DNA of 64,000 nucleotides, taken from assembly GCA_965116195.1 (NCBI GenBank), contig OZ220491.1, positions 336,042-400,041 on the forward strand, given 5' to 3'. Position numbers and translations under genes: made by a program. This DNA comes from Acidimicrobiales bacterium. Its GTDB lineage: Bacteria > Actinomycetota > Acidimicrobiia > Acidimicrobiales > Aldehydirespiratoraceae. Under the pieces are notes generated by a model, which saw only the letters and a program-made list of their open reading frames with translations, ran no database searches and was not told where the DNA came from. How positions within the stretch are numbered: the first letter of the stretch is position 1; each line of letters begins with the position of its first letter. This document shows, piece after piece, positions 10,125-56,589 of the stretch.

Positions 10125-10126
10125 AT

Positions 10127-22397: not shown

Positions 22398-22594
22398 GTA
22401 ACTTCGAGAGGATCCTTGAGGAAATCACCAAACATGCCAGCGATGTATCTGAGGACTTTGACGCGGAGACCTTGATCGGATTGTCTATGAAACTCGTTGA
22501 CGAAGAAGACAAGCATAGGACGAAGAAGGTGAACATCAATCAGATCTTTGCGAACTTGATTGAGCAGGCAGCGAACGCAGAGGGGCCGAGATGA
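22391..22594 (+). CDS. small acidic helical protein (67 aa)
   Basis: It is coupled on both sides: ATGGTAA overlaps the helicase stop and ATGA overlaps the next start. It has no recognisable motif, and support comes only from this operon geometry. Confidence 0.45.
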   Translation: MVSNFERILEEITKHASDVSEDFDAETLIGLSMKLVDEEDKHRTKKVNINQIFANLIEQAANAEGPR

Positions 22595-28752: not shown

Positions 28753-28762
28753 TCATCGCGTC

Positions 28763-39745: not shown

Positions 39746-40296
39746 GCCTCGTCAATGGTTTGATAGAGAGCTATCAGCGATTCCTTAAGCTCCCTTGGCC
39801 TTCGGGTCTTGCGCCGGCGCAGCGCATCTGGATGGCTGTGTACGAGCCTGAGGATGAACGCAGGCTGAGACTCCACATGCCCGAGTTTGAGACCGCTACC
39901 AAGAAGGCCGGCTATGAGTGGGCACTCGTTGACATCACTAACGAGTTTGAGCTATGGATGGCCTGTCATGAATACCGGGATGCCTACTTTGCCAACCCTA
40001 GGCTCATGCAACCGGAGTTGGTCGGCTTTTTGGATCGACTCGTTGATAACGTGAGACAGCAAGTTACGGCGAAAACCACTGAGCGTACGATCATCGGCCT
40101 TCTGGGGGCTGCGAGTCTTTACGGCCTCGGTACGCATGTTAAAGTCTCAGCACTAATTGAGCGTGTCCAAGAATCTGTCCAAGGCCGCCTGCTCGTGTTT
40201 TTCCCCGGCGAGGCGCAAGGCAACAGCTACCGACTGCTTGGTGCCCGTGACGGTTGGAACTATCTCGCAACTCGCATCACTGCACAGAAAGGCTGA
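39742..40296 (+). CDS. brxB: BREX protein BrxB (DUF1788-type)
   Basis: ATGA overlap with brxA. RIWMAVYEPEDERRLRLHMPEFETATKKAGYEWALVDITNEFELWM and the C-terminal LVFFPGE fit DUF1788. Confidence 0.75.
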   Translation: MSLVNGLIESYQRFLKLPWPSGLAPAQRIWMAVYEPEDERRLRLHMPEFETATKKAGYEWALVDITNEFELWMACHEYRDAYFANPRLMQPELVGFLDRLVDNVRQQVTAKTTERTIIGLLGAASLYGLGTHVKVSALIERVQESVQGRLLVFFPGEAQGNSYRLLGARDGWNYLATRITAQKG

Positions 40297-40302
40297 CTTT
40301 AC

Positions 40303-43300
40303 GTGACCATGCAGAACCGTGAGGTGTTCGCTATTGATCCAACTAAACGCAATATCCCGAACCTCGGAGTGGCCAAGGTTCTCAACCCTAATAGCGAGGG
40401 TGCTTGGGCGACCCTGGAATGGGAATTGAGCAGTTTTGTCTGCGAAGGTGAGTACGAACGAGGCCTTGAGCGCATCCTTGATCAGTTTCTAAGCCATCTG
40501 AGTCGGGGCGAACAACCCGCGGTCTGGGTGAGTGGGTTTTTTGGCAGCGGCAAGTCGCACCTGATGCGGGTACTGGAGTACCTGTGGCGTGACTACAAGT
40601 TCTCCTCTGGAGCATCGGCCCGCGGCATGGCGACACTAACGCCGGACATTGATCGGCATCTTGTCGAACTCTCTAATGAAGGAAAGCGGCAGGGCGGACT
40701 GTGGTCGGCGGCTGGCACCCTCGGCTCCGGTGCTGATGGCTCGGTGAGGCTCGCATTCCTTGAGATCATCTTTGACGCAGCCGGGCTGCCCCGGCAGTAC
40801 GCCCAGGCGCGACTGGCCATTTACCTCAAGAATGAAGGTCTCTACGAACAAGTGCGAGCCTCAGTCGAGAAACAGGGACGGAATCTGGAGCACGAACTGA
40901 GGAACCTCTACGTGTCGCCCGTTCTAGCACAATCGCTCATTGATGCAGGTACCGCGTTTGGCGTAACCGCCTCCGAGGTGAGCACTGCGCTGCAGAGCCA
41001 GTATCCGATGCTCAACGACATTAGCAACGATGAAATGCTCAACACCTTCGAAGATGTCCTTAAGTTGGAGAGTACCGCCGACGGCAAGTTGCCGCTAGCG
41101 CTCGTCGTGCTTGACGAAATGCAGCAGTACATCAATGACGAGAACGCAAGGGCCGAGCATGTCCAACACCTTGTTGAGGGGTGCAGTTCCCGATTTGGCA
41201 GTCAAGTCGTTGTTGTAGCGACCGGACAGGCAGCTCTCACCGCCAATCCTACTTTGCAGAAGCTGATTGACCGCTTCTCGGTCACGGTCGCCTTGTCAGA
41301 CACGGACGTGGAAACCGTAGTGCGGAAGGTGGTCCTCTGCAAGAAACCTGATGCCACAGATACGATCAAAGACGCTCTCGACAAGGTCAGCGGCGAGATT
41401 GACCGACAGTTGGGAGGAACGCGACTAGAGGCACAAGCGGACGACAAAACGACACTTGTGTCTGACTATCCACTGTTGCCGACTCGAAGGCGATTCTGGG
41501 AACGAGCGCTGCGAGCGATTGACAAGGCTGGCAAGTCCGGTGTGTTGCGCACGCAACTCAAGATCGTTCACGACGCTGCACGAAGCGTTGCCGACAAGCC
41601 ACTCGGCAACGTCATTGGCGGTGACTTCATCTTCCATTCGGAGTGCGCCAGCATGCTTCAGAGCGGAGTTCTCCTAAAAGAAATTGATGAGCGTATACGC
41701 GGCTTGGAAGATGGTTTGCCAGATGGCAAGCTGAAGTCCCGGGCATCCGCCCTGATCTTCCTCATCTCACAGCTCCCCCATGACGCTGTCGGCGACACCG
41801 GAGTTCGGGCAACATCGCACTTTATCGCTGATCTCCTCGTTGAGGACCTCGCATCTGACGGCGTGCAGCTTCGGAAGGAAGTGCCTCGGATACTAGATGA
41901 TCTCGTGCAGCAAGGCCTCGTCATGAAACTTGGTGACGAATTCCGGCTGCAGACCGAAGAAGGAGCAGAATGGACGAGAGAGTATAACCGCCAAAGAGCA
42001 TCTATCCGTGACGACGCTGCACGTGTGGCACAGCTCAGGAACGAATGGTTGTCCAACATCGTTGACGAGAGGCTCTCGGGCATCAAGCTTGTCCAAGGCG
42101 ACAGCAAGACCCCCAGGAAGTTCAGACGATACTGGGACGACGATGAACCCGACCAAGATGAAACAGCCATACCGCTATGGATCCGTAACGAGTGGAACGT
42201 GACCGAGGCGCAGGCCAAGAAGAGTTTCTTGGAGGCAGGTATCGATAGTCCGACTGTGTTCGTCCTTCTACCGAAGGTCAATGCGGGTGCGATCCGTGAT
42301 ACTCTCGCCGGGTATGCGGCTGGATTGGACACCGTCGGTCAGCGGCCCGAGCCGCGGACTGACGAAGGTCGTCAGGCAAAGCGCGCAATGGAAGCACGAG
42401 TGGCGGACGAAGAACGCCATCTGAATGAGCTTATTGGTGAGGTCATTGATCAGGCTCGCGTGTTCCAGGGTGGGGGCAACGAACTCACGACATCCTCGCT
42501 TCGTATGGGCGTTGAGATGGCAGGAAAACATGCACTGAGTCGGCAGTTCCCCAAGTTCGCAATCGCGGATCACGCCAACTGGGGCAAGGTCAAGGACAAG
42601 GCTCGCGATGGAGCACCTGACGCGCTCACGTGGGTGGACTGGGAGGGCGAAGTGCCGTCGAACCCCGTCTGCCAAGAAGTCTTGAGACGGATTTCAGCAG
42701 ATGGGACGAAGGGTGGCGAAATTCGTGACTTGGAAGCCGCTCCTTACGGGTGGCCTAAGGACGCGATTGATGGTGCGCTGCTTGTGTTGTTCGCCAACGG
42801 CAACATTCGAGCTCAGCGTGGCGGCCAATTCGTTCAGAGCGCAAAAGAGCTACCGACACCGCAGATCGGAAAAACGACCTTCTACAAGGAGGACGAACCG
42901 CCATCCGCGCTCGAACGAATGGCCGTGAGGGGCGTACTTACTGAGGCGAACATCTCCTATACATCGGGTCAAGAGGACTTAGCCATCAGCGATCTTCTGA
43001 AGAGCCTTATTGCTCTGTCTGAATGCGCTGGAGGATCAGCCCCTTTACCGCAACCGCCAGACACTACCTACGTCAAAAATCTGTCGACTCTCGCAGGTAA
43101 CAAGTTATTTCGCGCCGTGGCCCAAGGGGCGGAACAACTCCGCCAAGACATCAGATGCTGGACTTCTGCAAAAGGTGAACGATGCCAACGTGAGGTGCTG
43201 TGGTCGAAACTTGACCGACTGCTTGATCACGCCTCATCTTTGAGCGCCGCGTGTGATATCCGCGTCCAGCGTGATGCCATCTTCGATAATCGCCTGCTTC

Positions 43301-43770
43301 TAGGAAGTCCTGATCCAGTAACTCCCCTCATCAAGCAAGTCAGTCTCCTCCTCAGAACGGCATTCAAGGGAGCCCTTGCGCAGCTCAGATCCGACTGCGA
43401 TTCTGCGATTGCCTCGTTGCACGCCACTGACGAATGGGATCAACTCAGTGACGAACAAAGAGAAGTGGTGCTCGCCGATGCTGGTCTCATACTGCCCACC
43501 GAACCAGATGTCTCTGACGTTGACGAACTCCTTGAAGCATTGAACGCACAACCATTGGAGGTAATCAGTGACAGGATCCAGGCGCTTCCGACGAAGGGGG
43601 TTGAGGCCCGCAAGCAGATCGCCAAGATCATTGATCCCGAGCCGAAGATCGCAAGAGTCGCACCTCCTACGGCCACGTTGAAATCTGAGTCCGACGTCGA
43701 TAACTATCTTGTTGAGCTACGGACGACATTGATGGAGCATATTAGTGCCGGTGAGACGGTGATCACGTGA
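40303..43770 (+). CDS. brxC: BREX ATPase BrxC/PglY, 1155 aa
   Basis: Walker A VSGFFGSGKSHLMRVL and Walker B ALVVLDEMQQY. Size and position are typical of BrxC. Confidence 0.85.
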   Translation: MTMQNREVFAIDPTKRNIPNLGVAKVLNPNSEGAWATLEWELSSFVCEGEYERGLERILDQFLSHLSRGEQPAVWVSGFFGSGKSHLMRVLEYLWRDYKFSSGASARGMATLTPDIDRHLVELSNEGKRQGGLWSAAGTLGSGADGSVRLAFLEIIFDAAGLPRQYAQARLAIYLKNEGLYEQVRASVEKQGRNLEHELRNLYVSPVLAQSLIDAGTAFGVTASEVSTALQSQYPMLNDISNDEMLNTFEDVLKLESTADGKLPLALVVLDEMQQYINDENARAEHVQHLVEGCSSRFGSQVVVVATGQAALTANPTLQKLIDRFSVTVALSDTDVETVVRKVVLCKKPDATDTIKDALDKVSGEIDRQLGGTRLEAQADDKTTLVSDYPLLPTRRRFWERALRAIDKAGKSGVLRTQLKIVHDAARSVADKPLGNVIGGDFIFHSECASMLQSGVLLKEIDERIRGLEDGLPDGKLKSRASALIFLISQLPHDAVGDTGVRATSHFIADLLVEDLASDGVQLRKEVPRILDDLVQQGLVMKLGDEFRLQTEEGAEWTREYNRQRASIRDDAARVAQLRNEWLSNIVDERLSGIKLVQGDSKTPRKFRRYWDDDEPDQDETAIPLWIRNEWNVTEAQAKKSFLEAGIDSPTVFVLLPKVNAGAIRDTLAGYAAGLDTVGQRPEPRTDEGRQAKRAMEARVADEERHLNELIGEVIDQARVFQGGGNELTTSSLRMGVEMAGKHALSRQFPKFAIADHANWGKVKDKARDGAPDALTWVDWEGEVPSNPVCQEVLRRISADGTKGGEIRDLEAAPYGWPKDAIDGALLVLFANGNIRAQRGGQFVQSAKELPTPQIGKTTFYKEDEPPSALERMAVRGVLTEANISYTSGQEDLAISDLLKSLIALSECAGGSAPLPQPPDTTYVKNLSTLAGNKLFRAVAQGAEQLRQDIRCWTSAKGERCQREVLWSKLDRLLDHASSLSAACDIRVQRDAIFDNRLLLGSPDPVTPLIKQVSLLLRTAFKGALAQLRSDCDSAIASLHATDEWDQLSDEQREVVLADAGLILPTEPDVSDVDELLEALNAQPLEVISDRIQALPTKGVEARKQIAKIIDPEPKIARVAPPTATLKSESDVDNYLVELRTTLMEHISAGETVIT

Positions 43771-43783
43771 TCGGCGCGACCTG

Positions 43784-46700
43784 ATGGGCGTTTTGGTGCC
43801 GGAGTTGCGGCGCGAGTTGGAGGAGGCCTGTGTGCGTGGTCGGCGAGCGTCTGAGGGTGCCTGTCGGGCTGCGTTGGGCTCGTTGGGTGTGTTGGCGGAA
43901 CGTCCGCCGGGACATCTAGATGATGGGAAACGAGCGCTCCGGCGGGGTTTACGAGCCAAGGCCAGGCAACTTGGGGATATGAGTGGTTCGGTCGAGTTGC
44001 TGGTAGGGGAGTGCGCGTATGCGCAGTGGCATAGGTTGTTGTTTTCGCGGTTCCTTGCCGAGAACGGTTTGCTGATCCATCCGGACTATGAGGTGCCCGT
44101 GACGCTGGCTGAGTGCGACGAACTAGCTCCCGAGTTAGGAGAACCGGATGGATGGAGTGTGGCTACTCGCTTCGCCGCAGAAATCTTGCCTGGTATATTC
44201 AGGTTGGATGATCCGTGCGTGAAGCTCCGGTTGGCCCCCGAGGGTCGTTTGGAGTTGGAGCGTATCGTCGGTTGTCTCTCGGAGGGGGTGTTCGTCGCTG
44301 ACGATTCGCTGGGGTGGGTTTACCAGTTCTGGCAGCGGGACAAAAAGGACCAGGTAAACGCTTCGGAACGCAAGATTGGTGGAGCAGATCTCGGGCCGGT
44401 GACCCAGCTGTTCACTGAGGACTACATGGTCCGGTTTCTTTTGGAGAACTCGCTCGGGGCTTGGTGGGCGGTCCGCCACCCGGAGAGCCAACTGCTCAAG
44501 AAATGGAAGTACCTACGTTTCGATGACGATGGTCGGCCAACCGCTGGAGGATTCGAGAAGTGGCCGGACCATGTTGCCGAACTGACGGTGATGGATCCGT
44601 GTTGCGGGTCGGGTCACTTCTTGGTCCAAGCCTTCGCAATGTTGTGGCAGATGCGATCTGAAGAGGAGGCTCTGAGTCCGGTGGCAGCGCAGGATGCAGT
44701 ACTACGCGACAATTTGTATGGGTTGGAACTGGATCCTCGCTGTGTGCAGATCGCGATGTTTGCCATCTGCGCGCAGGCCTGGAAGTCGGGTGGCGGGTGG
44801 CGTGAACTCCCGGTGCCGCACATTGCGTGCTCGGGTCTCTCAGTAAAAGCGTCTGTGGACGAGTGGGTGCAGCTTGCAAAGGGTGATGAGCGGCTTAAGG
44901 ACGCTCTAGTGCGGCTTCACATCCTTTTCCGGGAAGCGGACACGCTCGGCAGCCTGATTGATCCCAAGCGAGTGGTGGGGATCGCCGATCCGACAGGACA
45001 GCAGTCATCATTCCAAGACGTCAACTGGGACGAGATCGTGCCGCTAGTTACTGAAGCGCTCAGTCGTGAGGTGGATGACCCCACAACGGCTGTGCTCGGT
45101 GCAAACGCAACCGGCCTCGCTAGAGCTGCTGACTACCTCTCGCGTCGATACAACCTCATCATGACTAACCCGCCCTTTCTCGGTCGGGCGAAGCAGCGAG
45201 ATGACTTGAAGCAGCACTTGTCGATGTTCCATTCTTTGGCCCAAGGTGACCTTGCTACAACTATTCAGGCAAGATGGAGTGCATGTGGCGATGTTTACGC
45301 ATTGGTATTGCCTCAGAATTGGCTCACAGATACTAGTTATCGTTCGCTACGAAAGGAAACGTTGACCAAACGCCATCTCGCGATGATTGCTTGGCTCGGT
45401 CCCGAGGCTTTTCGATCGATGTCAGGTCCGTTTGTCCAGCCAGTGTTAATGGTTGAGGGTCAGTCGAACGGACCTCGTCAGCACATTAGCCTATTGGATG
45501 TTAGCGCGTCTAGTGGTGCTGACGCTAAGGCGATGGCCTTGCGGACGGCCGAGTTCCGGCGCGTGCAACAGTCCGCACAACTTGATAATCCCGACCATAG
45601 AATCCTGTTCCTGCCGATCGGTTCATCTAATGCAGCCTTGTTGGACGCATTTGCGAATGCTTGGCAAGGAATAGCTTCCAGCGATAAGCCGCGATTTGAT
45701 CGTGTCTTTTGGGAGATGCCTTGTCTACTGGAGGGCTGGAGATATCAACAAAGCACAGTTAGCACAACTGCAGTCTATGGTGGTCGTGGGGCAGTCCTAT
45801 TTTGGGAGAATGGTTCTGGGCAGATGACCGAGGTCTGCCAACCCGGCGCACCCTTCAGGGGCAAGGAGGCGTGGGGTCGATCAGGGGTTGTCATATCGCA
45901 GATGGGAAATTTGCCTGCAACGATCTATACGGGTGAGTGCTTTGACAACAACGCTGCGGTGCTGACGCTGAGCGACGAGGAACTGCTTCCAGCGCTGTGG
46001 GCTTTTGTGACTTCAGACGAGTATTGCGTCCTCGTGCGACGTATCGACCGCATAACGAAAGTGACTAACTCGACGTTGACAAAGGTGCCGTTTGATGTGG
46101 AGCGGTGGCGCGAAGTGGCGGAGGAAAAGTACCCGGATGGGTTGCCGAAGCCGTGGTCAGATGATCCGACGCAGTGGTTGTTCGGGGGGCGACCGGAGGA
46201 GGCGACTGAGTCGTTGCAGGTCGCTGTGGGGCGGTTGCTAGGTTATCGGTGGCCCGGGCAATCCGAGGCCGATGATCTCGACGAGTTAGCAGATGAAGAC
46301 GGGATCGTCTGTTTGTCGTCGGTGTTGGGCGAACCAGCGGCTGACGATCGGCTTCGGGAGGTGTTAGCTTGGGCGTTCAGTGGGTGTTCGCCGGCGAAGA
46401 CGAGGGAGTTGTTGGTGGCAGCGGGTTCGAAGAAAAAGGACCTCAAGTTGTGGCTGCGGGACGACTTCTTCAAGGCGCACTGCAAGATATTCGGGAATCG
46501 GCCGTTCATTTGGCATGTCTGGGACGGCCGAAGGGATGGCTTCGCTGCGCTGATAAATTACCATCGGCTCAATCGGGCCACACTTGAGAGGCTGGCCTTC
46601 ACTTATCTGGGTGATTGGATGGAGCGACAGTCTGCCGGTATCCGTGATGAGGTGGAGGGTGCGGACGAACGGCTGGCGGCGGCGCAGAACCTGCAGGGGC

Positions 46701-46972
46701 GGCTTAAGCTGATCCTGGAGGGGGAGCCTCCCTTTGATATCTATGTGAGGTGGAAGTCACTTGCGGAGCAGCCTATGGGATGGGAACCGAATCTCAACGA
46801 TGGAGTACGACTGAACGTGCGACCGTTCGTTGAGGCGGGTGTGTTGCGGTCAAAATTCAATGTCAAATGGGGCAAGGACAAAGGCAAGAACCCCGATGGT
46901 AGTGAGCGACACAACGATCATCACTTCACCTTGGCCGACAAGGAAACTGCACGCAACAGAACCCAACCATGA
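43784..46972 (+). CDS. pglX: BREX N6-adenine DNA methyltransferase PglX
   Basis: SAM motif VMDPCCGSGHFLV and catalytic NLIMTNPPFLG (NPPF). 1062 aa. Confidence 0.85.
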   Translation: MGVLVPELRRELEEACVRGRRASEGACRAALGSLGVLAERPPGHLDDGKRALRRGLRAKARQLGDMSGSVELLVGECAYAQWHRLLFSRFLAENGLLIHPDYEVPVTLAECDELAPELGEPDGWSVATRFAAEILPGIFRLDDPCVKLRLAPEGRLELERIVGCLSEGVFVADDSLGWVYQFWQRDKKDQVNASERKIGGADLGPVTQLFTEDYMVRFLLENSLGAWWAVRHPESQLLKKWKYLRFDDDGRPTAGGFEKWPDHVAELTVMDPCCGSGHFLVQAFAMLWQMRSEEEALSPVAAQDAVLRDNLYGLELDPRCVQIAMFAICAQAWKSGGGWRELPVPHIACSGLSVKASVDEWVQLAKGDERLKDALVRLHILFREADTLGSLIDPKRVVGIADPTGQQSSFQDVNWDEIVPLVTEALSREVDDPTTAVLGANATGLARAADYLSRRYNLIMTNPPFLGRAKQRDDLKQHLSMFHSLAQGDLATTIQARWSACGDVYALVLPQNWLTDTSYRSLRKETLTKRHLAMIAWLGPEAFRSMSGPFVQPVLMVEGQSNGPRQHISLLDVSASSGADAKAMALRTAEFRRVQQSAQLDNPDHRILFLPIGSSNAALLDAFANAWQGIASSDKPRFDRVFWEMPCLLEGWRYQQSTVSTTAVYGGRGAVLFWENGSGQMTEVCQPGAPFRGKEAWGRSGVVISQMGNLPATIYTGECFDNNAAVLTLSDEELLPALWAFVTSDEYCVLVRRIDRITKVTNSTLTKVPFDVERWREVAEEKYPDGLPKPWSDDPTQWLFGGRPEEATESLQVAVGRLLGYRWPGQSEADDLDELADEDGIVCLSSVLGEPAADDRLREVLAWAFSGCSPAKTRELLVAAGSKKKDLKLWLRDDFFKAHCKIFGNRPFIWHVWDGRRDGFAALINYHRLNRATLERLAFTYLGDWMERQSAGIRDEVEGADERLAAAQNLQGRLKLILEGEPPFDIYVRWKSLAEQPMGWEPNLNDGVRLNVRPFVEAGVLRSKFNVKWGKDKGKNPDGSERHNDHHFTLADKETARNRTQP

Positions 46973-49284
46973 GCGAGTTGATGCGGGACCGTATAGTTCA
47001 AATCCTAAGAGCTGCTGAAACGTATGACCCGAACACGAAATGTGCTCCGATTGCACTGCTGTGGCCAGACGGTGAGCGTCAGTGGCAGTCGCTTGTTCCC
47101 TGTCTCCGTAGGCATTTGCGGGTCGTGAGTCTTGGGCCTTTTGATGTTGAGCCGTGGCAGGGACCCGCCTACTGGCTTCGCTGTGTGATCGCAGAGACCG
47201 TGAAACTTCACGGGTTACCTCTTGGGACACCGGTCGTCTATCTGCCAGGGGTATCCCGAAACTCTCTATGCACCATTGATGCGGTAGATGATCCACTGGC
47301 ACCCTTGCGTGCGATCCAGCATCTATGCCAGTGGATCAGCCATCCCAACGGCAAGGACTGGACCGTCAGAGCGATGCTCTCCAACAAGGAGTGCGGACTC
47401 GGCCTCAGAGTCGCGCGCAACCCAGAAACGGCTGAAGCGCTAGTGGCTAGCCTTCCGAAACTTGCGGCGCAGCGCTGGGATCGGCTTGAAGAGAAGTACG
47501 TTGATGTTGACTTCCTCAACAGTCTGCTGAACCCGGACCCGGTCCGGTCCATGTTGGATTGGCTTGACGAGCCAACCGAAATGCGGGCATCGCTTTCTGA
47601 TGAGGAGTGGACTGCGTTTGTGCAACAGTGCAGGAATGACTTTGGGTTTGACCCGGCCACGCAGGGAGAGATTGAAGGCGCTCGCCAACTCGGGTTCCGC
47701 GAAGGCCGTTGGGACGATGTTTGGCACCGGTTCAGAGAGAACCCCACTGGTTTCCCGGGAATTCCGGATCGGTTGCGCCAAGCCCAACCGAGCGAATTGC
47801 TGCCCCAGAGTCCAGGCTCTTGGCCCGTCCTTGCATCGGAAGAAGAGGAGCAGCTTTGCAAGGCCTTGAAACGCCTCGTGGAAGAGACGCCTGAGGAGGC
47901 TCGCGCTCGACTCCTGGAACTTGAGAACGGACACGGCGTGCGCCGCAGTTACGTCTGGGCGGACCTTGGCAGGACACCTCTTGCGCTTGCCCTTGAGTAT
48001 CTAGCAGAACTGGCGCGCCTGACATCAGCGGGAGCCGTTGGTACGACGGTGGAATCAATTGCTGAGTGGTACGCATCAGCGGGCTGGAGGGCAGACTGGG
48101 CAGTGCTGGCTGCACTGGGTGAGGTGGACCGCCAAGATGACATTGCAGCAGTCGTGGCTGCGGTCGCAGCCGTCTACAAACCGTGGGCCGACGCATCCGC
48201 ACGATCACTTCAGTCAGCTGTTGGCCCTATGACGAATTCTGCAACGTACATTGCATCATCGCCCCCTGTGCTGGAAAGCGGCGATGTTGTGGTTTTCGTT
48301 GATGGCTTGCGGCTTGACATCGCAAATCGTCTGAAAGATCAATTATCCAGTTCCGGACTTGAAGCCGACCTTTCGACCGAACTCGCCGCGCTTCCAACCG
48401 TCACTCAGACCTCCAAGCCAGCACTTATTCCGGTTGACCAGAGTGTCTTGGCGGCAGGGCCTGACCTTGACGCGAGACGCGCACCGGATGGCCCCGCTGC
48501 GCGAGTCCGCATACTGCGTGGTCTGATGACTGCTGCTGGCGTTCAGGTGCTCGGTGACACCGATGTCGGCGATCCCACCGGTGTGGCATGGACGGAGACT
48601 GGCCAGATTGACGAACGAGGGCACGATCTCGGCCTCCGACTCGCACACGAAGTCGACGACGAAGTGAAGCGCATCGCCACACGCATTAGTGAACTGTTGA
48701 GTGCCGGCTGGAAACGAGTCACTGTCGTAACGGATCACGGCTGGCAACTTGTGCCGGGAGGTCTTCCGAAGAACGAAGATCTCCCGCTCGCCGTCACCGA
48801 AACGAGAAAGGGGCGGTGCGCCAGGATTAAAGAAGGTGCCGATACTGTGGTGCCGACGGTGCCTTGGCACTGGGATCCTGAAGTGAGAATTGCGGTAGCA
48901 CCTGGCATCTCCTGCTTTGAAGCCAACAGGACTTACGAGCACGGCGGTGTCAGTCCTCAGGAGTGCGTCGTGCCTCGCCTCAGGGTCAAGCGGGGAGCCG
49001 CAGAGACCGCAGGCGCGGCGATAACAAGCTTGAAGTGGCGAGGGCTTGCTCTTGTCATTGAATGCTCCGAGTTGCCTAATGGGGCCACGATTGACCTTCG
49101 ATCCTCAGCGGGCGACATAGCATCAAGCATCGCCGCCCGAGCGCGCTTGACCAGTGACGAAGGAAAGGTGATCCTGCTCGTCGGTGATGAGGATCTTGAA
49201 GGACAGCGGGCCCACCTTGTTCTTGTCGGAGCGGACGGGTCCTTACTTCTCCAGCGTGAAACAATGGTGGGACAGAACCGATGA
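46969..49284 (+). CDS. pglZ: BREX alkaline-phosphatase-superfamily protein PglZ
   Basis: ATGA overlap with pglX. PglZ-domain elements are VVFVDGLRLDIANRL, PTVTQTSKPALI, VTDHGW and YEHGGVSPQECVVP. Confidence 0.85.
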   Translation: MSELMRDRIVQILRAAETYDPNTKCAPIALLWPDGERQWQSLVPCLRRHLRVVSLGPFDVEPWQGPAYWLRCVIAETVKLHGLPLGTPVVYLPGVSRNSLCTIDAVDDPLAPLRAIQHLCQWISHPNGKDWTVRAMLSNKECGLGLRVARNPETAEALVASLPKLAAQRWDRLEEKYVDVDFLNSLLNPDPVRSMLDWLDEPTEMRASLSDEEWTAFVQQCRNDFGFDPATQGEIEGARQLGFREGRWDDVWHRFRENPTGFPGIPDRLRQAQPSELLPQSPGSWPVLASEEEEQLCKALKRLVEETPEEARARLLELENGHGVRRSYVWADLGRTPLALALEYLAELARLTSAGAVGTTVESIAEWYASAGWRADWAVLAALGEVDRQDDIAAVVAAVAAVYKPWADASARSLQSAVGPMTNSATYIASSPPVLESGDVVVFVDGLRLDIANRLKDQLSSSGLEADLSTELAALPTVTQTSKPALIPVDQSVLAAGPDLDARRAPDGPAARVRILRGLMTAAGVQVLGDTDVGDPTGVAWTETGQIDERGHDLGLRLAHEVDDEVKRIATRISELLSAGWKRVTVVTDHGWQLVPGGLPKNEDLPLAVTETRKGRCARIKEGADTVVPTVPWHWDPEVRIAVAPGISCFEANRTYEHGGVSPQECVVPRLRVKRGAAETAGAAITSLKWRGLALVIECSELPNGATIDLRSSAGDIASSIAARARLTSDEGKVILLVGDEDLEGQRAHLVLVGADGSLLLQRETMVGQNR

Positions 49285-51740
49285 CCGGACTAGACATGCT
49301 GGACAACCTCGCCGCCGAAGTCTTTGATGGTTACCTGGTCAAGAAAGACCTCGCACAACAATTTCGTGGCCAATATCCCGTCCCAACTTATGTCGGCGAG
49401 TTCATGCTTGGACGTTACTGTGCCACCACCGACCCCGACGGCATCGCAGCCGGCCTTGAGATGGTTCAGCAGTCCATGCAAGACCGAACCGTCCGAGCCG
49501 GTGAAGAGGAACTGTTCAAACACCGCGCCCGCAACAAGGGTCGAGTTAAGATCATTGACCTTCTCAGAGCTCGACTTGATCCGAAGAGTGACGCTTACAA
49601 GGCCGAACTTCCCAGCCTCCAGCTCAATGACATCCATATTTCGCCCGAACTAGTGGATGAACACCAGCGCATGCTCACCGGCGGCTTCTACGCCGAAGTC
49701 AAATTAGAGTACATCGCCGCCCTTGCCAGTGAGCAGGGCGGCCAACCCTTTCGTGTCGAAGCGATCCGACCGATACAAATGTCTACTCGAAATGCTCTCG
49801 GGACCTTCATCAAAGGCCGATCTGAGTTCACGCTTGACCAATGGCGGCAACTTCTCCTCCGGAGCGTCGGATTTGAGCCGTCGCGCCTCGGCTCCCGCCA
49901 ACAGGACATCCTGATCGCTCGGATGGTGCCCTTTGTCGTTCGCAACTACAATGCCGTTGAACTCGGCCCGCGCGGCACCGGCAAGTCCCATCTGTACCAG
50001 CAGGTCTCGCCCTATGCACATCTTGTCTCTGGTGGCAAAGCCACGATCGCAAGCATGTTCGTCAACATGAACACGGGGCGACGCGGCCTCGTAGCTCAGT
50101 ACGACGTGATTTGTTTCGACGAGGTTTCTGGTGTTTCCTTTGACCAGAAGGAAGGTGTCAATATCCTCAAGGGCTACATGGAGTCTGGCGAGTTCAGCCG
50201 AGGCCGTGAATCGATTCGTGCTGAAGGCGGCATCGTCATGGTGGGCAACTTCGACATTGACGTTGAAACTCAGCTGCGGGGCGGCCACCTCATGTCTCCA
50301 CTGCCCAAAGAGATGCGCAACGACACCGCTCTCATGGACCGCATCCACTCGTACCTGCCTGGCTGGGACGTGCCCAAACTCGACCCCTCGTACTTCACTA
50401 AGCACTTTGGGTTCGTGAGCGACTACTTGGCTGAGGTGTGGAGCCAACTACGAGGAGCCACGCGACTTGATGCAATCCAAGGGCGTCTCAACTGGGGCAG
50501 CCAGCTCAGCGGGCGCGACCGCAAGGCAGTCAACAACACCATTGATGGGTTACTCAGGCTCTTGTACCCGAACCCCGAGATGGAAGTCCCTGACCACTTC
50601 CTCAGTTGGGCAGCCACGCTCTCACTGGAGACGCGACGGCGTGTGAAGGAGGCGCAAGCCTTCATCGGAGCTAAGGAGTTCGGTAAGACCGATCTCTCGT
50701 TCAGCATCGGCGATGGACCCGAGGTGATTGTCTACTGCGAAGAGACCAGGAGGTATCGAATGCAGATGCAGAGTGAAGCGCAGGACCGTGCAGGTACCAG
50801 GGGCACCACCGACAGCGAGTTGCTGCCAGCCCCAGACGCTGATGATGTCTCGTTGTGCATACCGTCTCGGGACTACACCGTTGGTGACACTATTGGTGGG
50901 CGTTTCGAGGTCAAGGCGATCCTAGGAGCAGGCGGTTACTCCAAGGTTTATCGAGTTCACGATGTTGTCGAGAGCGAAGAACGGGCTCTCAAGCTCTTTG
51001 ACAGCGCAGCCGGATACGACGCAGTTCGGCGGGAGATCGGAGCTTTGCGCAAGGTCAAGCACCCCAATGTCGTCGAAGTCATCTGGGCTGACCGCACCGA
51101 GTTCAACGAGTGGTACCTCATCATGGAGTTCGTTGACGGTGAACTTCTTTCTGACTACACCACAGGGAAGAAACTCCGGGATCGCGAAGTCGTTGATATC
51201 GGCCTTGACCTACTCGATGCTCTTGTGGCGATCCATCCCGACACCGAACGACTTGATGCACTTGATCAAAAGAAAAACCAAGGCGAGATCAGCGCCGATG
51301 AGTTCAATGAATTGGTGTCATCCAGCGATAACGCACTCGTGCACCGCGACATCAAGCCCCAGAACATCGTGCTTACCCGATCGGGTGCGAAGTTACTTGA
51401 CTTTAACATCTCGTCACGAGTCGGCGACCCCGTACGCACTGTCTCGGGAACGCCGCCCTATCGGTCACCCGACGCAGACTTAACCCGATGGGATGTCTCC
51501 ACGGATCTCTTTGCCGTGGGTGTGACGCTATACGAACTCCTCTGTGACGGCGAGCACCCATACCCACAAGCGCGTCCCATGCCGGATTTCCAACCTCGCG
51601 ATCCTCGACGGTTCCGAAGGGACCTAAGCGAAGACATGGCCGAGTTCCTCCTGCGTGCATGCGCTCCCAATCGAGCCACTCGCTTCCAAACATCAGCCGA
51701 GATGAAGGCGGCTCTTGAAAAAACCCGTACCACGCTGTGA
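49281..51740 (+). CDS. brxL: BrxL-like AAA+ ATPase fused to a Hanks-type Ser/Thr protein kinase domain (no Lon protease domain)
   Basis: ATGA overlap with pglZ. Residues 1-~488 match BrxL throughout (FDGYLVKKDL, PTYVGEFMLGRYCAT, IRPIQMS, ELGPRGTGKSHLY, DVICFDEVSG, MDRIHSYLPGWDVPK, FVSDYLAEV, LSGRDRKAVNNTIDGLLRLLYP). Residues ~541-815 carry kinase subdomains LGAGGYSKVY, ALKLF, EIGALRKVKHPNVV, HRDIKPQNIVL, DFNIS, GTPPYRSPD, DLFAVGVTLYELL. Confidence 0.85.
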   Translation: MTGLDMLDNLAAEVFDGYLVKKDLAQQFRGQYPVPTYVGEFMLGRYCATTDPDGIAAGLEMVQQSMQDRTVRAGEEELFKHRARNKGRVKIIDLLRARLDPKSDAYKAELPSLQLNDIHISPELVDEHQRMLTGGFYAEVKLEYIAALASEQGGQPFRVEAIRPIQMSTRNALGTFIKGRSEFTLDQWRQLLLRSVGFEPSRLGSRQQDILIARMVPFVVRNYNAVELGPRGTGKSHLYQQVSPYAHLVSGGKATIASMFVNMNTGRRGLVAQYDVICFDEVSGVSFDQKEGVNILKGYMESGEFSRGRESIRAEGGIVMVGNFDIDVETQLRGGHLMSPLPKEMRNDTALMDRIHSYLPGWDVPKLDPSYFTKHFGFVSDYLAEVWSQLRGATRLDAIQGRLNWGSQLSGRDRKAVNNTIDGLLRLLYPNPEMEVPDHFLSWAATLSLETRRRVKEAQAFIGAKEFGKTDLSFSIGDGPEVIVYCEETRRYRMQMQSEAQDRAGTRGTTDSELLPAPDADDVSLCIPSRDYTVGDTIGGRFEVKAILGAGGYSKVYRVHDVVESEERALKLFDSAAGYDAVRREIGALRKVKHPNVVEVIWADRTEFNEWYLIMEFVDGELLSDYTTGKKLRDREVVDIGLDLLDALVAIHPDTERLDALDQKKNQGEISADEFNELVSSSDNALVHRDIKPQNIVLTRSGAKLLDFNISSRVGDPVRTVSGTPPYRSPDADLTRWDVSTDLFAVGVTLYELLCDGEHPYPQARPMPDFQPRDPRRFRRDLSEDMAEFLLRACAPNRATRFQTSAEMKAALEKTRTTL

Positions 51741-51968: not shown

Positions 51969-53012
51969 ATGAATCCCGAAACAGCCTTCAAACAGTTTGA
52001 GCCGATCGTTAACGCGGATCCGGAGTTGTTGAAGGCTGCGCGGCTGCGGCGAGATGCTTTCGTGGGCGCGTTCGCACGAGAGCAGGTTGTTGTTGAGGCC
52101 CGCGCGATTGGTTCGTTGGAACGCAAGACACAGAAGTCGCCCGTGAACGATGTTGACATTTTGGTGGTGTACGACAGCCGGGCTCATTCCGATTGGGGGT
52201 TCGAAGCGATTGACTGGACGAGCGCCGAGGCGATCAAGAAAACCGCGCAAAGGGTTCGGGACCTCTTGGGCAAGGATGGGTCGGAGTTGAAGTTGTTGAA
52301 CCCCGATGGTGGTTCAGACTTGTACGTGCGACAGGCCCGTCCCAAGCGCCACTCAGTGAAGTGTTTCCTCGACAAGGCCGGTGAAGAGGATGCATTCACG
52401 GTTGATGTTGTTCCGGCGGTTAGCCACCCAGATCAGGGCGTCTGGATTCCGGAGATCAACTTCAACGAAGACGATGTGGGAACATGGATACGCAGTGACC
52501 CGGAGCATCTGATCACGTGTGCCAAGCAGTTCCAGGAGGAGTGGAACTTGTGGGTCCCGGTTGTCCGGGCGTTGAAGTACTGGAACAGTGAGCGTGGCGC
52601 GGGGATGTCCTCACTCTATGTGGAGATCATGGCTCATACGGCTTTGCCTCGCAACGACTCGCGATCTGGGGGGATCGCAAGATTCTTCCAGGCTGGGGAG
52701 TACCAGGTGTCGGCCGAGTTGAGCGATCCGGCCGGTCTGTGTGGGGCGATCCAGCCAGACCTTGACGTTGAGAATGCCCGAAAATGCCTCGCCGAAGCAG
52801 CCGAACTCGCGTGTAAGGCAGTTAAGGCGGAGGCCGATGGTCGAGTGGACGACGCTGTGTGCGCGTGGCGCTCAATTTTCGGCAGAGAGTTCCCGTTGCC
52901 ACCAAGAGGATGTAACGGATCCGCGTCAGCAGCTCCGGTGTTGGTTGGTGTTGCCATGCAGTCGGACCGGAATCCAACACCGCGGCGGGTGAAGGACAGT
53001 CCGCAGGGATGA
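51969..53012 (+). CDS. CBASS cGAS/DncV-like nucleotidyltransferase (CD-NTase, SMODS-type)
   Basis: Pol-beta NTase core GSLERKTQKSPVNDVDILVV plus a third acidic residue in FTVDVVPA. It also has WIRSDPEHL and VVRALKYWN elements, and a disordered tail ending ...RRVKDSPQG. Confidence 0.75.
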   Translation: MNPETAFKQFEPIVNADPELLKAARLRRDAFVGAFAREQVVVEARAIGSLERKTQKSPVNDVDILVVYDSRAHSDWGFEAIDWTSAEAIKKTAQRVRDLLGKDGSELKLLNPDGGSDLYVRQARPKRHSVKCFLDKAGEEDAFTVDVVPAVSHPDQGVWIPEINFNEDDVGTWIRSDPEHLITCAKQFQEEWNLWVPVVRALKYWNSERGAGMSSLYVEIMAHTALPRNDSRSGGIARFFQAGEYQVSAELSDPAGLCGAIQPDLDVENARKCLAEAAELACKAVKAEADGRVDDAVCAWRSIFGREFPLPPRGCNGSASAAPVLVGVAMQSDRNPTPRRVKDSPQG

Positions 53013-53524
53013 CCATGGAGCCCCGAACGTGGGACGAAGTGTTGCCCAACCGTCTAGTCTGGGAACTTGCGCAGATGAAACGGGTCGCTCCTGAACTCTC
53101 ATGGAGCGACTCGGACAAGGAGTGGTCGGGGCTGGCACCGGTGTGGCCATTTGATCGGCCTCGTCCCCCGAAGCTCTGCGCATTTCTCAATGGGGATCGT
53201 TTCAAGCTAAAAATCGTTCCATCGCCTGCGCATCCTGCGGTGCCGCCCAAGATCTGGCCGGTAGAGCCCCGCACAGAGTTCGTGCATCGCTCCGACACGG
53301 CCTGGCATACCATCGGTGATGGGTCATTGTGTGTAGTGCGGGAGTACTACACATGGACCGGCGTTGAAGCATGTGCAGCGCTGGTGCCTACTGCCGCCGG
53401 CTGGTTCTTGGAATTCTTGTTGAGGACCGCAGGTGTCATCAATGCGATGACTGCGCATGGCATTGAGACCTCCGCCGAACTGGACGACCTGTTCGTTCCG
53501 TCCAATCGTAGGTCGTATGGGTGA
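53009..53524 (+). CDS. cap2: E2 (UBC)-like domain protein, Cap2 N-terminal part
   Basis: ATGA overlap with the CD-NTase. HPAVPPKIWP...HRSDTAWHTIGDGSLCV resembles the E2 HPN...C catalytic-cysteine region. Confidence 0.55.
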   Translation: MTMEPRTWDEVLPNRLVWELAQMKRVAPELSWSDSDKEWSGLAPVWPFDRPRPPKLCAFLNGDRFKLKIVPSPAHPAVPPKIWPVEPRTEFVHRSDTAWHTIGDGSLCVVREYYTWTGVEACAALVPTAAGWFLEFLLRTAGVINAMTAHGIETSAELDDLFVPSNRRSYG

Positions 53525-53874
53525 ATAGCCAAGTGTGTTTGGTGACCGCGGCCAGCGTCCTCAAAGACCTCAGTTGCGCTAACGCAGGTTGGGGTTGGCT
53601 GGACCTGAAGGTGTCGCCGGCTGAGGGACTGGCAGCTATTGAGGCGTACATCTACGGACGCTCCTCGAATCACAGGCGAATCGGGGGTCGCACTCGTGAT
53701 CTTCCTATGATGCATCGTCTGCGACAAGCCGAATTCGTTTCGAAGGCAGCTGTTTGGTATCGCGCGAAACCTGAGGTGGAATTGGTGGAATTGCATCAAT
53801 TTATGGCGCGGCGGCCAAGTCCAGGTCTCCCGGTGAGTTTGCTTTCGAGAGCTAGTCAACCAAGGATGGGTTGA
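53521..53874 (+). CDS. hypothetical ORF in the position of the Cap2 linker region (possibly a frameshifted segment)
   Basis: The GTG start overlaps the E2 stop as GTGA. It is a 117-codon open frame. It sits in a different frame from the E2 and E1 ORFs, which share one frame with each other. Confidence 0.35.
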   Translation: MNSQVCLVTAASVLKDLSCANAGWGWLDLKVSPAEGLAAIEAYIYGRSSNHRRIGGRTRDLPMMHRLRQAEFVSKAAVWYRAKPEVELVELHQFMARRPSPGLPVSLLSRASQPRMG

Positions 53875-53941
53875 ACCGCCCAGTGATGGAGTCTTTTTTG
53901 TCCTGATAGAGGATCGGTCTATCGAACCAACCCAGTGGACC

Positions 53942-54832
53942 GTGTGGGATCTGTCCGACGGCACTGCAGTCCCGATATGGATGGTCATCTACGACAAGGA
54001 GCAAATTCCCGCTTCCGTGTACGAAGGCCACTGGCCTCTAGGTGAGGTAAACGCCGCAACGGTAGCTGTGGTTGGAGTTGGCTCAATCGGCTCTGCAGCT
54101 GCGCTGGGGTTGGTGGACTACGAGATCGGCAACCTCGTCTTGATTGACTTCGATCGCTTGCAGCCTCACAATATCGCCCGACACCGTTGCGGACCAGAGC
54201 ATATCGGCCGGTTCAAGGTGGATGCCGTCGCTGATCTCATCCGAACTCGGTCAGATGTGAGCTTAAGTCCATTGCGATATAGCGTCATTGATCACGCCGA
54301 TCTGATCAGGCCCGTTCTTGACAGTGTTGACGTCGTCGTCTGCTGTGTAGATGGGGTTGCTGCTCGCCAGGCAACCTCTCACCTGTGTTCAACATCGGCG
54401 ACCAGCGCGATCTTTGCGTGTGTGCTTGAAAACGGCGCACTGGGAGAAATCGTTCGTGACCCGGCGCGAAGCGATGTTGGCTGTCTGCGATGCCACCGCA
54501 TGGAACTCGAAGCGTCCGGATGTATGGATCCGGAGCCGACGCTTGACTTGGAATACGGAACGGGAACGACGCATCGACCGATGACAGCCATTGGGGGTGA
54601 TTTGGTGCTTATGGGCCAGTTGGCAGCTAAGGCTGCCGTCACCACCATTCTTGAGCGGCGGGGCTACCGAGATCAGCGACTGGCAAACGATCACCTTGTG
54701 ATTGGCCTGCGACCTGACGAGCAGTGGGAAGCCCCGTTTGATCAGACCCGTGTTCTCAATGTCGGAGCAGCACCTCTCCCGCCACCCAACCCCGAGTGTC
54801 CGTTATGTTGTGGCGACCGCGTCTACGCATGA
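53942..54832 (+). CDS. cap2: E1 (ThiF/MoeB)-like adenylation domain protein, Cap2 C-terminal part
   Basis: Rossmann loop VAVVGVGSIGSAAALGL, LIDFDRLQPHNIARH, Cys pairs CLRCH and CPLCC. The frame is open upstream to 53837 without a start codon, and GTG 53942 is the first candidate start. Confidence 0.65.
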   Translation: MWDLSDGTAVPIWMVIYDKEQIPASVYEGHWPLGEVNAATVAVVGVGSIGSAAALGLVDYEIGNLVLIDFDRLQPHNIARHRCGPEHIGRFKVDAVADLIRTRSDVSLSPLRYSVIDHADLIRPVLDSVDVVVCCVDGVAARQATSHLCSTSATSAIFACVLENGALGEIVRDPARSDVGCLRCHRMELEASGCMDPEPTLDLEYGTGTTHRPMTAIGGDLVLMGQLAAKAAVTTILERRGYRDQRLANDHLVIGLRPDEQWEAPFDQTRVLNVGAAPLPPPNPECPLCCGDRVYA

Positions 54833-55050
54833 CCAATGACATTCGTAGTGCTATCCGACTGTCGCGTCATAACGCACCGGCGGTGCTGAGACAAGTGGTG
54901 CGTTGTCGGGTTTACCTCGGCACCGGGCGTGAGCTAATAGTGACCGATGCGATTCGACCTGCTGCAGTGTGCTTTGAGAGTTACGACGGTTCGGGTCGCT
55001 GCTTGGGAGTTCACTGTCCGACGCGTCATCGGCCGATAGTTGCGCTATAA
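54829..55050 (+). CDS. 73-aa ORF in the position where Cap3 (JAB) is expected
   Basis: ATGA overlap with the E1 stop. It is too short for an MPN/JAB domain, and no ExnHxHx(7)Sx(2)D metal site is visible. Confidence 0.3.
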   Translation: MTNDIRSAIRLSRHNAPAVLRQVVRCRVYLGTGRELIVTDAIRPAAVCFESYDGSGRCLGVHCPTRHRPIVAL

Positions 55051-55077
55051 GGGGTTCAGGAGAGGAAACTGGAGGCT

Positions 55078-56589
55078 ATGCAAGATTTCAGAACTGCATC
55101 GCAGGCGGCTCTCGCCCGCGCCGCTGCACCGGTTGATGTTGTGAGTTTGTCGGCACGGGCTTCGGCAATTCGCGGAGATGACTATCAGCATACAATTGGC
55201 TGGTATTGGGCGTGCAAGATGCTTTGTAACCCCGACATAGTGTCAGTCTCAATTGAGGATGCCTCGGGAGGAGCATTCGATGATGTCGTTATTCGTCGTC
55301 TGACGGGGCCGGACACGTACATCCAGGTCAAGAGTTCGACCTCAGGCGATAAGGTTGGTGATATCAACTGGCTAACGACACCGGCTACTGCACGCGGGAG
55401 AAGTCCGTTGCAGCACTTTTTCGCTACCTTCCTACAACTTTCGGAAGGCAACATTGAGTTCAGACTCGAAATGTGGACCAACCGCAGATACGACGATCGC
55501 AGCGGACTGTTTGGCAAGTTCTTCGACAACAAGAGCGAGAAGGTCCGAACTGATGCGCTGCTTTCGAAGTCAAACGGGTCGAAGGCTGGCAAGGAGAGGA
55601 AAGCGCTGGCTATGCACTTGGGTGTCGAGGTAGCACAACTGGCTGCGTTCCTCGACAAGGTTTGTTGGAAAACGACCGGAGGGGAAGATGCGTGGCGACA
55701 GCACGCGCGTCCGCTGATGGAACTCGCTGGTCTTCGTTCGGATGAGCAGGCAATTAACTCTGGAGTTTCGTTGGTGCGTTCGTGGGTCACTGACGGAAAA
55801 GGTCCCCAGTCGACCGATGATGTGCGCGCCGCAGTAGCTGAACGGGATCTGCTTGCGGTGAGCGGAACGCTGGTCTTGGTGGTGAATGGCATTGATCGCG
55901 AGCCAACACCGATGGTGCCGACGGTCGTGCTTGACTTTGTTGATCTCTACGAAGGTGAAGGTTCCTTCACGAGAAAACTGTTCCTTGACAGGAGCGAGTG
56001 GGACACAACCGTGAGGCCGGCCCTTGACGACGCTGTTCGGGCGTTGAAGGGCTACGGGGTGCGCCATGTCCATGTAGGCGGGTCAATGCGACACCCTATG
56101 TGGTTCATGGTGGGGCGGTCGCTTCCGGAGGTGAAGAAGTGGACTCTGTCGGTTGAGCAGGTTGGGACTACGTGGCGTACCGACGAGGAGTTGCAGGTGG
56201 TTCGTGCCAGGACCCTGACTGACGTGGAGTTGGGCGCGGCCCCCGGAGTCGCGGTCGGTCTTGGCCTGACCAGTGACCCGAGCGAAAATGTTGAGCGTTT
56301 CCTTCGAATGGGGGATCTTGACGTGGGTCGGTTGCTGGTGTACGGGCCAGGTGGCGAGCCTTCACGAGTTTCTGTTCCGTCGGGAGCGTGGGCGATGACG
56401 TGGGCGCGGTCAGTGAGAGATCAGGTTCGCGCAATCGTGCCAGATGCGCAACATGTGCATGTGTTCATGCAGTGCCCCGCTGGGGTTGCGTTAATGCTGG
56501 GCCATCAGTGGAACCTGATGCCTGATACAACCATGTATGAGTTTGTGGGAAACAACTACCATCCAACGGTGACAGTACCAGGCGTGTGA
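55078..56589 (+). CDS. cap4: CBASS effector Cap4: PD-(D/E)xK nuclease (DUF4297-type) + SAVED sensor domain
   Basis: ATG behind GGAGG. The N-terminus reads GDDYQHTIGWYWACKML...SIEDASGGAFDDVVI...YIQVKSS (D...E/D-x-K nuclease). The C-terminal ~300 aa have SAVED-like features (HVHVGGSMRHPMWFMVGRSL; HVHVFMQCPAGVALMLGHQWN). Confidence 0.75.
   Translation: MQDFRTASQAALARAAAPVDVVSLSARASAIRGDDYQHTIGWYWACKMLCNPDIVSVSIEDASGGAFDDVVIRRLTGPDTYIQVKSSTSGDKVGDINWLTTPATARGRSPLQHFFATFLQLSEGNIEFRLEMWTNRRYDDRSGLFGKFFDNKSEKVRTDALLSKSNGSKAGKERKALAMHLGVEVAQLAAFLDKVCWKTTGGEDAWRQHARPLMELAGLRSDEQAINSGVSLVRSWVTDGKGPQSTDDVRAAVAERDLLAVSGTLVLVVNGIDREPTPMVPTVVLDFVDLYEGEGSFTRKLFLDRSEWDTTVRPALDDAVRALKGYGVRHVHVGGSMRHPMWFMVGRSLPEVKKWTLSVEQVGTTWRTDEELQVVRARTLTDVELGAAPGVAVGLGLTSDPSENVERFLRMGDLDVGRLLVYGPGGEPSRVSVPSGAWAMTWARSVRDQVRAIVPDAQHVHVFMQCPAGVALMLGHQWNLMPDTTMYEFVGNNYHPTVTVPGV

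Follow-up and report, generated by a model that had tools for sequence, protein, structure and literature searches.

The stretch analysed here, called the window below, comprises 64,000 nucleotides from an Acidimicrobiales bacterium of the family Aldehydirespiratoraceae (Actinomycetota; assembly GCA_965116195.1, contig OZ220491.1, forward-strand positions 336,042 to 400,041). It carries an operon of the bacteriophage exclusion (BREX) defence system, in which six collinear genes follow each other in the order brxA–brxB–brxC–pglX–pglZ–brxL (Table 1). The sixth and final gene encodes a protein in which the N-terminal region and the ATPase of BrxL are followed, in the same frame, by a linker and a Hanks-type Ser/Thr protein kinase domain. 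This protein is the BrxL subunit of a type 1 BREX system, with a kinase module in place of the Lon-like C-terminal domain. The operon itself is complete and purely type 1. With the NCBIfam models, its PglX reaches 312 bits for BREX-1 and 29 bits for BREX-2, and models of PglW, BrxD and BrxHI gave no match among the eight open reading frames (ORFs) in or beside the operon, a scan that did not extend to the remaining ORFs of the window. The pglZ gene overlaps both pglX and the brxL-kinase gene by 4 nucleotides.

Table 1. Features of the BREX operon, of its brxL-kinase gene and of the surrounding defence island, numbered from the first letter of the window
Feature	Position	Strand	Basis or remark
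DndB-like ORF	10121–12196		weak match
SspA	12586–13752		phosphorothioation cluster
SspB/DUF4007	13743–14828		phosphorothioation cluster
SspC	14825–18307		phosphorothioation cluster
SspD	18126–19142		phosphorothioation cluster
ORF of no assigned family	19158–20177		phosphorothioation cluster
PbeA helicase	20178–22397		phosphorothioation cluster
PbeC-like ATPase	22591–24786		phosphorothioation cluster
DNA photolyase/cryptochrome	28619–30694		ordinary
Dcm-type C5-cytosine DNA methyltransferase	36940–38853	-	divergent, just upstream of brxA
brxA	38978–39745	+	PADLOC BrxA PDLC02450, E 7e-72
brxB	39742–40296	+	PADLOC BrxB PDLC02469, E 1.5e-62
brxC, P-loop ATPase	40303–43770	+	PADLOC BrxC 1288 bits; NCBIfam BREX_BrxC 706 bits, cut-off 400
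pglX, N6-adenine methyltransferase, BREX-1 type	43784–46972	+	PADLOC PglX 1275 bits
pglZ, BREX-1 type B	46969–49284	+	NCBIfam NF033450 equivalog 780 bits, cut-off 400
brxL-kinase fusion gene, 819 residues	49281–51740	+	single ORF; Pfam BrxL_N, BrxL_ATPase and Pkinase
BrxL N-terminal DNA-binding region, residues 13–144	49317–49712	+	Pfam PF20442 BrxL_N, E 1e-42; aligns to PDB 8EMC
BrxL MCM-like AAA+ ATPase, residues 157–472	49749–50696	+	Pfam PF13337 BrxL_ATPase, E 6e-118; aligns to 8EMC
Linker, residues 489–535 (~45)	50745–50885	+	begins at the end of BrxL homology
Hanks-type Ser/Thr kinase domain, residues ~536–819	50886–51737	+	Pfam Pkinase, E 6.5e-29
Family-specific insertion, residues ~653–684 (~30)	51237–51332	+	follows helix alphaE ('AIHPD') and precedes the HRD catalytic loop
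Catalytic loop HRDIKPQN (688–695) to Mg-binding DFN (707–709)	51342–51407	+	invariant in all aligned homologues
CBASS oligonucleotide cyclase	51969–53012		
Small unannotated ORF within CBASS	53009–53524		
Small unannotated ORF within CBASS	53521–53874		
ThiF/E1-like protein, CBASS	53942–54832		
SAVED-PDDEXK nuclease effector, CBASS	55078–56589		
PLD/HKD-family protein	56901–58418	-	island edge; two PLDc_2 stretches, weak DrmC-like matches

The assignment of the first part of the protein to BrxL relies on several models. Residues 7–475 align to residues 9–471 of Acinetobacter BrxL (PDB 8EMC) at 403 bits, both Walker motifs being covered, which bears out the first-pass annotation of this DNA in its description of residues 1 to about 488 as collinear with BrxL. 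The Walker A (GPRGTGKS, 229–236) and Walker B (DVICFDE, 275–281) motifs are invariant among the 32 sequences compared. Among the NCBIfam models, the protein passes the short BrxL model TIGR02688 (425 bits, cut-off 329) and falls below the cut-off of the long one, TIGR02653 (486 bits, cut-off 628). The match to the best PADLOC BrxL model, of 680 positions, ends at position 487. In the Pfam annotation, Lon_C gave no match in the 819-residue protein at E ≤ 0.01, nor was a NERD domain matched. Canonical BrxL (Acinetobacter, PDB 8EMC/8EMH; TIGR02653) has the same N-terminal DNA-binding region and MCM-like AAA+ core, and is likewise the final gene of the type 1 operon, but it continues into a ring-dimerising Lon-like C-terminal domain where the window protein has the kinase.

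The point of exchange could be located precisely by comparison with the nearest kinase-less BrxLs. These are proteins of about 680 residues, found in many phyla, which share 57–66% identity with the window protein over residues 4–488; their similarity ends exactly at residue 488, where they carry Lon_C. The fusion is thus a clean C-terminal domain replacement, as had been proposed from the sequence alone. The linker that follows is slightly shorter than the 50 residues or so first estimated; part of it is conserved and travels with the kinase module. Disorder is predicted for residues 488–513, and just beyond lies a conserved motif, L515-P-x-P518-D-x-x-(D/E)-V, in which P516 and P518 are invariant in the homologue alignment.

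More details were obtained on the kinase domain. Its Pkinase score of 101.6 bits (cut-off 31.7) is divided between two stretches because the family-specific insertion splits the domain. All the expected motifs are found: the glycine loop G549-A-G-G-Y-S, the beta3 lysine K571 within ALK, the alphaC glutamate E585, the catalytic loop H688-R-D-I-K-P-Q-N695, D707-F-N709, G723-T-P-P-Y727 and P730-D731. Invariant residues, both among 24–32 fusion proteins and in an 18-sequence alignment reaching down to 44% identity, are G549xGG, K571, E585, H688-R-D-x-K-P-x-N695, D707-F-N709, T720, G723-T-P-P-Y, D742 and R801, while S722 of the activation loop is nearly invariant; the motifs listed in the first-pass annotation are accordingly present and invariant or nearly so. 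Two deviations from the kinase consensus are themselves conserved, the DFG glycine being replaced by asparagine (DFN) and the APE glutamate by aspartate (PPD). Along the fusion protein, the kinase and the ATPase are equally well conserved, with a column identity of about 0.9 in each, and the minimum (0.58) is found in the linker.

An AlphaFold2 (AF2) model of the kinase domain alone shows a normal bilobal kinase, with a predicted local distance difference test score (pLDDT) of 82.7 and a predicted template modelling score of 0.81. The insertion before the catalytic loop, which had been noticed by eye, is real and is modelled as a helix-loop-helix (helices 655–666 and 672–683, pLDDT ~80–89). 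Mycobacterium tuberculosis PknB and Staphylococcus aureus Stk1 are the nearest PDB neighbours by structure and sequence, PknB (5u94) being the top Foldseek match with E 8e-20, a template modelling (TM) score of 0.85 and 27% identity. The window kinase shares the Ser/Thr-type HRDxKxxN loop of these enzymes (phmmer score to M. tuberculosis PknB, 87 bits), but it is devoid of any transmembrane or PASTA part, contains the additional helical insertion, and has DFN for DFG and PPD for APE. An aminoglycoside or small-molecule kinase was also considered and rejected, the APH match being weak (34 bits) and the Ser/Thr-type HRDxKxxN loop and the GT P+1 loop being indicative of protein substrates. Since the catalytic residues are all invariant, the domain is predicted to be catalytically competent and a degenerate pseudokinase, which would have undermined the proposal, is unlikely; that reading was rejected.

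Far from being an isolated curiosity, BrxL-kinase is a large conserved family, widespread in Actinomycetota, and its rarity and uniqueness had been overstated. At least 120 protein clusters (90% identity level) of about 820 residues each have the same Pfam set as the window protein, to which they are 76–86% identical; they were drawn from assemblies of NCBI, JGI, ENA and Logan. A species-level genome scan found the full-length fusion in about 35 genomes, mostly of Actinomycetota. The carriers include Acidimicrobiia, Mycobacterium triplex DSM 44626, M. kyorinense, Gordonia, Micromonospora, Sphaerisporangium, Jatrophihabitans, Solirubrobacterales, Egibacteraceae and one member of Longimicrobiaceae; isolates among them include the two Mycobacterium species, Micromonospora and Sphaerisporangium. 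The closest relatives of the window protein are found in Microthrixaceae and Acidimicrobiales. At every fusion locus with sufficient flanking sequence, the same collinear six-gene operon was observed. The names given to these proteins in databases are only automatic ones ('TIGR02653 family', 'BrxL', 'non-specific serine/threonine protein kinase').

This conservation also settles whether the fusion might be an artefact, produced by misassembly or by a frameshift joining brxL to an adjacent kinase gene. Such an origin could be suspected from six related loci in metagenome-assembled genomes (L023, L024, L029, L052, L056 and L067), where the full-length brxL-kinase match is broken in frame; these copies probably represent assembly errors or decay into pseudogenes. 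The window gene is, in contrast, one clean frame of 819 codons with an ATG start, the same junction and length recur in the independent clusters and in isolate genomes, and the linker is conserved in both length and motif. Misassembly or frameshift, named at the outset as what could refute the fusion, was therefore rejected, its probability being practically negligible.

The kinase module has relatives outside BrxL, which give insights into its possible origin. On NCBIfam kinase-family models the best match of the window protein is MAD6 (176 bits, E 1e-51), ahead of PknB (125 bits) and PglW (81 bits). An exhaustive search of representative proteins was made for non-BrxL partners of the module, whose boundary in these proteins lies from about residue 509 of the window protein. 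The closest (60–68% identity to the window module) are short proteins, a fusion to a Sll1717-type P-loop ATPase and a fusion to a receiver domain. They are followed by tandem-kinase proteins about 600 residues long, in their second half (47–52%), and by the second kinase of NERD-kinase-kinase proteins of 1228–1363 residues (44–49%). The latter pass the NCBIfam MAD6 equivalog (508–563 bits, cut-off 460) and score 148–230 bits on the PglW model, of which the cut-off is 990. One of them lies in an operon with an N6-methyltransferase, HsdS, MAD7 and an 1800-residue protein, that is, in a methylation-associated defence system (MADS). The insertion, DFN and GTPPYxxPD are common to the MAD6-type second kinases and to the other module fusions in the alignment, and the LPxPDxxEV leader is present in the closer non-BrxL relatives. 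Among the proteins in which module and leader are joined to other partners (P0143, L086 8001–10598; P0145; P0135, L085 10001–11821; P0133; P0134), these partners are the Sll1717-type P-loop ATPase, the receiver domain, a second kinase or short N-termini without Pfam match; GmrSD, HEPN and AAA_15/21 genes are found in the neighbourhood of P0135. Some of the non-BrxL fusions lie in defence islands.

As working criteria for the clade we took a helix-loop-helix between alphaE and HRD, the motifs DFN and GTPPYxxPD, and an identity above 40% to the second kinases of MAD6; the window module shows all of them. Judged from these sequence comparisons, the module belongs to the clade of NERD-pseudokinase-kinase proteins, of which PglW is also a member, and is closest within it to MAD6 of MADS. 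Leader, kinase, DFN and insertion form a mobile module. The first-pass annotation had described the system as a hybrid between BREX of type 1 and of type 2. This holds insofar as the kinase comes from the PglW-containing clade, but all other genes are type 1 and MAD6 is closer than PglW. Type 2 BREX, also called phage growth limitation (Pgl), does have the Ser/Thr kinase PglW (NF033442) within a methylation-based defence containing PglX and PglZ, and the stretch of the PglW model matched by the window kinase (positions 506–767, 81 bits) is that of its second kinase. The window protein differs in having no NERD, no pseudokinase and no PglW C-terminal half, and its operon differs from type 2 in the presence of BrxA, BrxB and BrxL and in the BREX-1 type of PglX and PglZ, which places it outside the type 2 definition. 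Direct descent from PglW was rejected, the PglW model score being far below that of MAD6. A tblastn search of the kinase module against plasmids retrieved generic kinases only (30–32% identity) and no PglW.

MAD6 (NF047741), which shares the insertion, DFN and GTPPYxxPD with the window kinase, has the same NERD-pseudokinase-kinase plan as PglW, extended by a long C-terminal region, and its partners are MAD7, MAD8 and a type I-like methyltransferase/S pair. The mad6 gene is required for defence in the methylation-based MADS (Maestri et al., bioRxiv 10.1101/2023.03.30.534895). The MAD6 model spans NERD, the first kinase and the N-lobe of the second; the window protein matches it over positions 472–608 only, below its cut-off of 460 bits, and is thus not a MAD6 itself; the immediate neighbours of its gene are BREX genes and genes of a cyclic-oligonucleotide-based anti-phage signalling system (CBASS), not MAD7 or MAD8. 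A rough neighbour-joining tree, rooted on MAD6 and without support values, puts the small non-BrxL fusions within the BrxL-kinase clade, and the groupings of the kinase and BrxL halves are broadly congruent. Such a pattern fits one old fusion, followed by transfer of the operon among Actinomycetota and by occasional donation of the module.

Acquisition of a kinase by BrxL seems to have occurred in other lineages too. A 789-residue BrxL-kinase (P0123, L082 10001–12370) is 48% identical to the window protein and has a kinase without the insertion, in which DFN is kept. Another one, of 764 residues (P0183, L081 10001–12295), is 32% identical and has a canonical DFG/APE kinase, which suggests an independent acquisition. 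Each closes a brxB–brxC–pglX–pglZ operon of type 1 BREX. Since these two represent separate lineages, kinase uptake by BrxL would have taken place more than once. When the ORFs downstream of the fusion gene were clustered, a PP2C phosphatase gene was found immediately downstream at 4 of 23 loci (L004 12468–13256; L021 12487–13302; L003 5566–6297; L006 13638–14333), which gives modest support to real phospho-signalling. No other downstream family recurs, and a conserved dedicated downstream partner was rejected.

What the kinase does can be approached by analogy with known BrxL proteins. Canonical BrxL forms hexamers through its N-terminal and ATPase domains, in a manner dependent on ATP and DNA, and two such hexamers are joined tail to tail into a double ring by the C-terminal domains, which are in contact at its equator (PMC10164562). 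A BrxL-HKD variant provides a precedent for the exchange of this tail: it retains the BrxL N-terminus and ATPase but has an enzymatic module instead of the Lon-like part, in that case a C-terminal HKD endoDNase, which is found in 1030 of 2913 BrxL-bearing type 1 taxa and has been proposed as an extra effector (PMC12839542). BrxL-HKD carries a nuclease and would cleave DNA, whereas the kinase of the window protein implies phosphorylation. The reading that we favour, with a probability of roughly 0.5, is that the kinase is likewise an output module borne by the BrxL motor, an effector that replaces the Lon-like or HKD-nuclease tail. PglX would methylate the BREX sites of the host, as it does in type 1 BREX elsewhere. 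When unmethylated DNA enters, the BREX complex would license the ATP-dependent assembly of a hexameric BrxL ring around this DNA, which would gather six kinase domains on its C-terminal face. The clustered kinases could then switch one another on through trans-autophosphorylation at the activation loop (T720, S722); with the kinase at the C-terminal position of the ring, such a proximity-driven mode would be the simplest model. Once active, they would block phage replication by phosphorylating proteins of the phage or the host, or other BREX components, for instance PglZ or PglX. In some lineages the adjacent PP2C phosphatase may reset or restrain the kinase.

Several observations weigh against an effector kinase on the ring. 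In some type 1 systems (Salmonella, cited in PMC12839542) restriction does not require BrxL, so that the main effector need not be the module at its C-terminus. Loss of the Lon-like domain should abolish the tail-to-tail dimerisation of the rings. The DFN and PPD substitutions are unusual in a kinase, the metal-binding aspartate being nevertheless kept, and PP2C is absent from the window as well as from 19 of the 23 loci. The full-length AF2 model is also poor (pLDDT 54, from a shallow alignment of 42 sequences at 76–86% identity) and unusable for domain packing.

The kinase could instead be a regulator, phosphorylating PglX, PglZ, BrxC or BrxL so that methylation or restriction could be turned on and off in a PglW-like manner, with PglZ or PP2C as the opposing phosphatase. 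This possibility, which we consider distinctly less probable than an effector role, draws on PglW of Streptomyces Pgl, considered to govern the methyltransferase through phosphorylation, and on the view that the absence of a kinase explains why the target of PglZ is obscure in type 1 BREX (both PMC9009780). It would agree with the MAD6/PglW clade of the kinase, with the translational coupling of pglZ and brxL-kinase through their overlap and with the occasional PP2C neighbours. However, recent work (cited in PMC12839542) ascribes to PglZ a metal-dependent nuclease activity instead of a role as protein phosphatase, the majority of type 1 systems do without any kinase, and the fusion of the same module to unrelated sensor NTPases is the pattern of an interchangeable effector. 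A mainly structural or nucleotide-sensing role looks improbable. The domain would then serve as an oligomerisation or docking surface in place of the Lon-like domain, phosphotransfer being irrelevant, as in a functional pseudokinase. The Lon-like domain that it replaces is indeed catalytically dead and structural (PMC10164562, PMC12839542), and both the DFG glycine and the APE glutamate are substituted. Yet pseudokinases typically lose some of their catalytic residues, whereas the beta3 lysine, the alphaC glutamate, the HRD aspartate, the lysine and asparagine of the loop and the DFN aspartate are all invariant down to 44% identity, and the PP2C partners imply real phosphorylation. Beyond the effector reading itself lies a broader and more tentative proposal: BrxL-kinase may define a distinct sub-type of type 1 BREX with protein phosphorylation as its output, in which the kinase would be switched on by the BrxL ring on unmethylated DNA, the same module acting as a shared effector of BREX-1, of BREX-2/Pgl (as PglW) and of MADS (as MAD6).

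The BREX operon is part of an approximately 45-kb defence island. A phosphorothioation defence cluster (12.6–24.8 kb; SspABCD, PbeA and a PbeC-like ATPase) lies on its upstream side, across which the G+C fraction drops to 0.51–0.56, and an ORF with a weak DndB-like match precedes it. The photolyase/cryptochrome gene is located between the two defence clusters. Just upstream of brxA, the C-terminus of the Dcm-type methyltransferase shows matches to the Fe-S motif of endonuclease III and to a MutY-like region, and this protein is possibly a methylase-glycosylase fusion. A CBASS system (51969–56589) directly follows the BREX operon.

The BREX diversity survey published in 2026 in Nucleic Acids Research (PMC12839542) describes BrxL C-termini as inactive LonP, HKD-DNase or, in type 4, none, and no BrxL kinase is mentioned in its text or supplements. 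Other BrxL papers, including the structure paper PMC10164562, mention kinases only with regard to PglW, and a literature search returned no paper pairing bacterial BrxL with 'kinase domain'. The suggestion that such a fusion was undescribed thus stands for the searchable literature. Tail swapping as such, from LonP to HKD, had been described before, and apart from the kinase the system is standard.

The finding bears on how type 1 BREX stops phage and on what share BrxL has in it. The C-terminus of BrxL emerges as an exchangeable output slot, for which three modules are now known: the dead Lon domain, the HKD nuclease and the kinase. It contradicts a statement in the literature by which no kinase is present in type 1 BREX systems, and a single mobile kinase module ties together three methylation-based defences, namely BREX-1, Pgl/BREX-2 and MADS. 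The kinase also provides a convenient experimental handle, through phosphoproteomics and kinase-dead mutants, and it is present in Mycobacterium and other Actinomycetota, where phage defence has practical interest. If phosphorylation is indeed the output, the 'missing kinase' opposite PglZ would be supplied, and the phospho-substrates would give a tractable read-out of how BREX stops phage.

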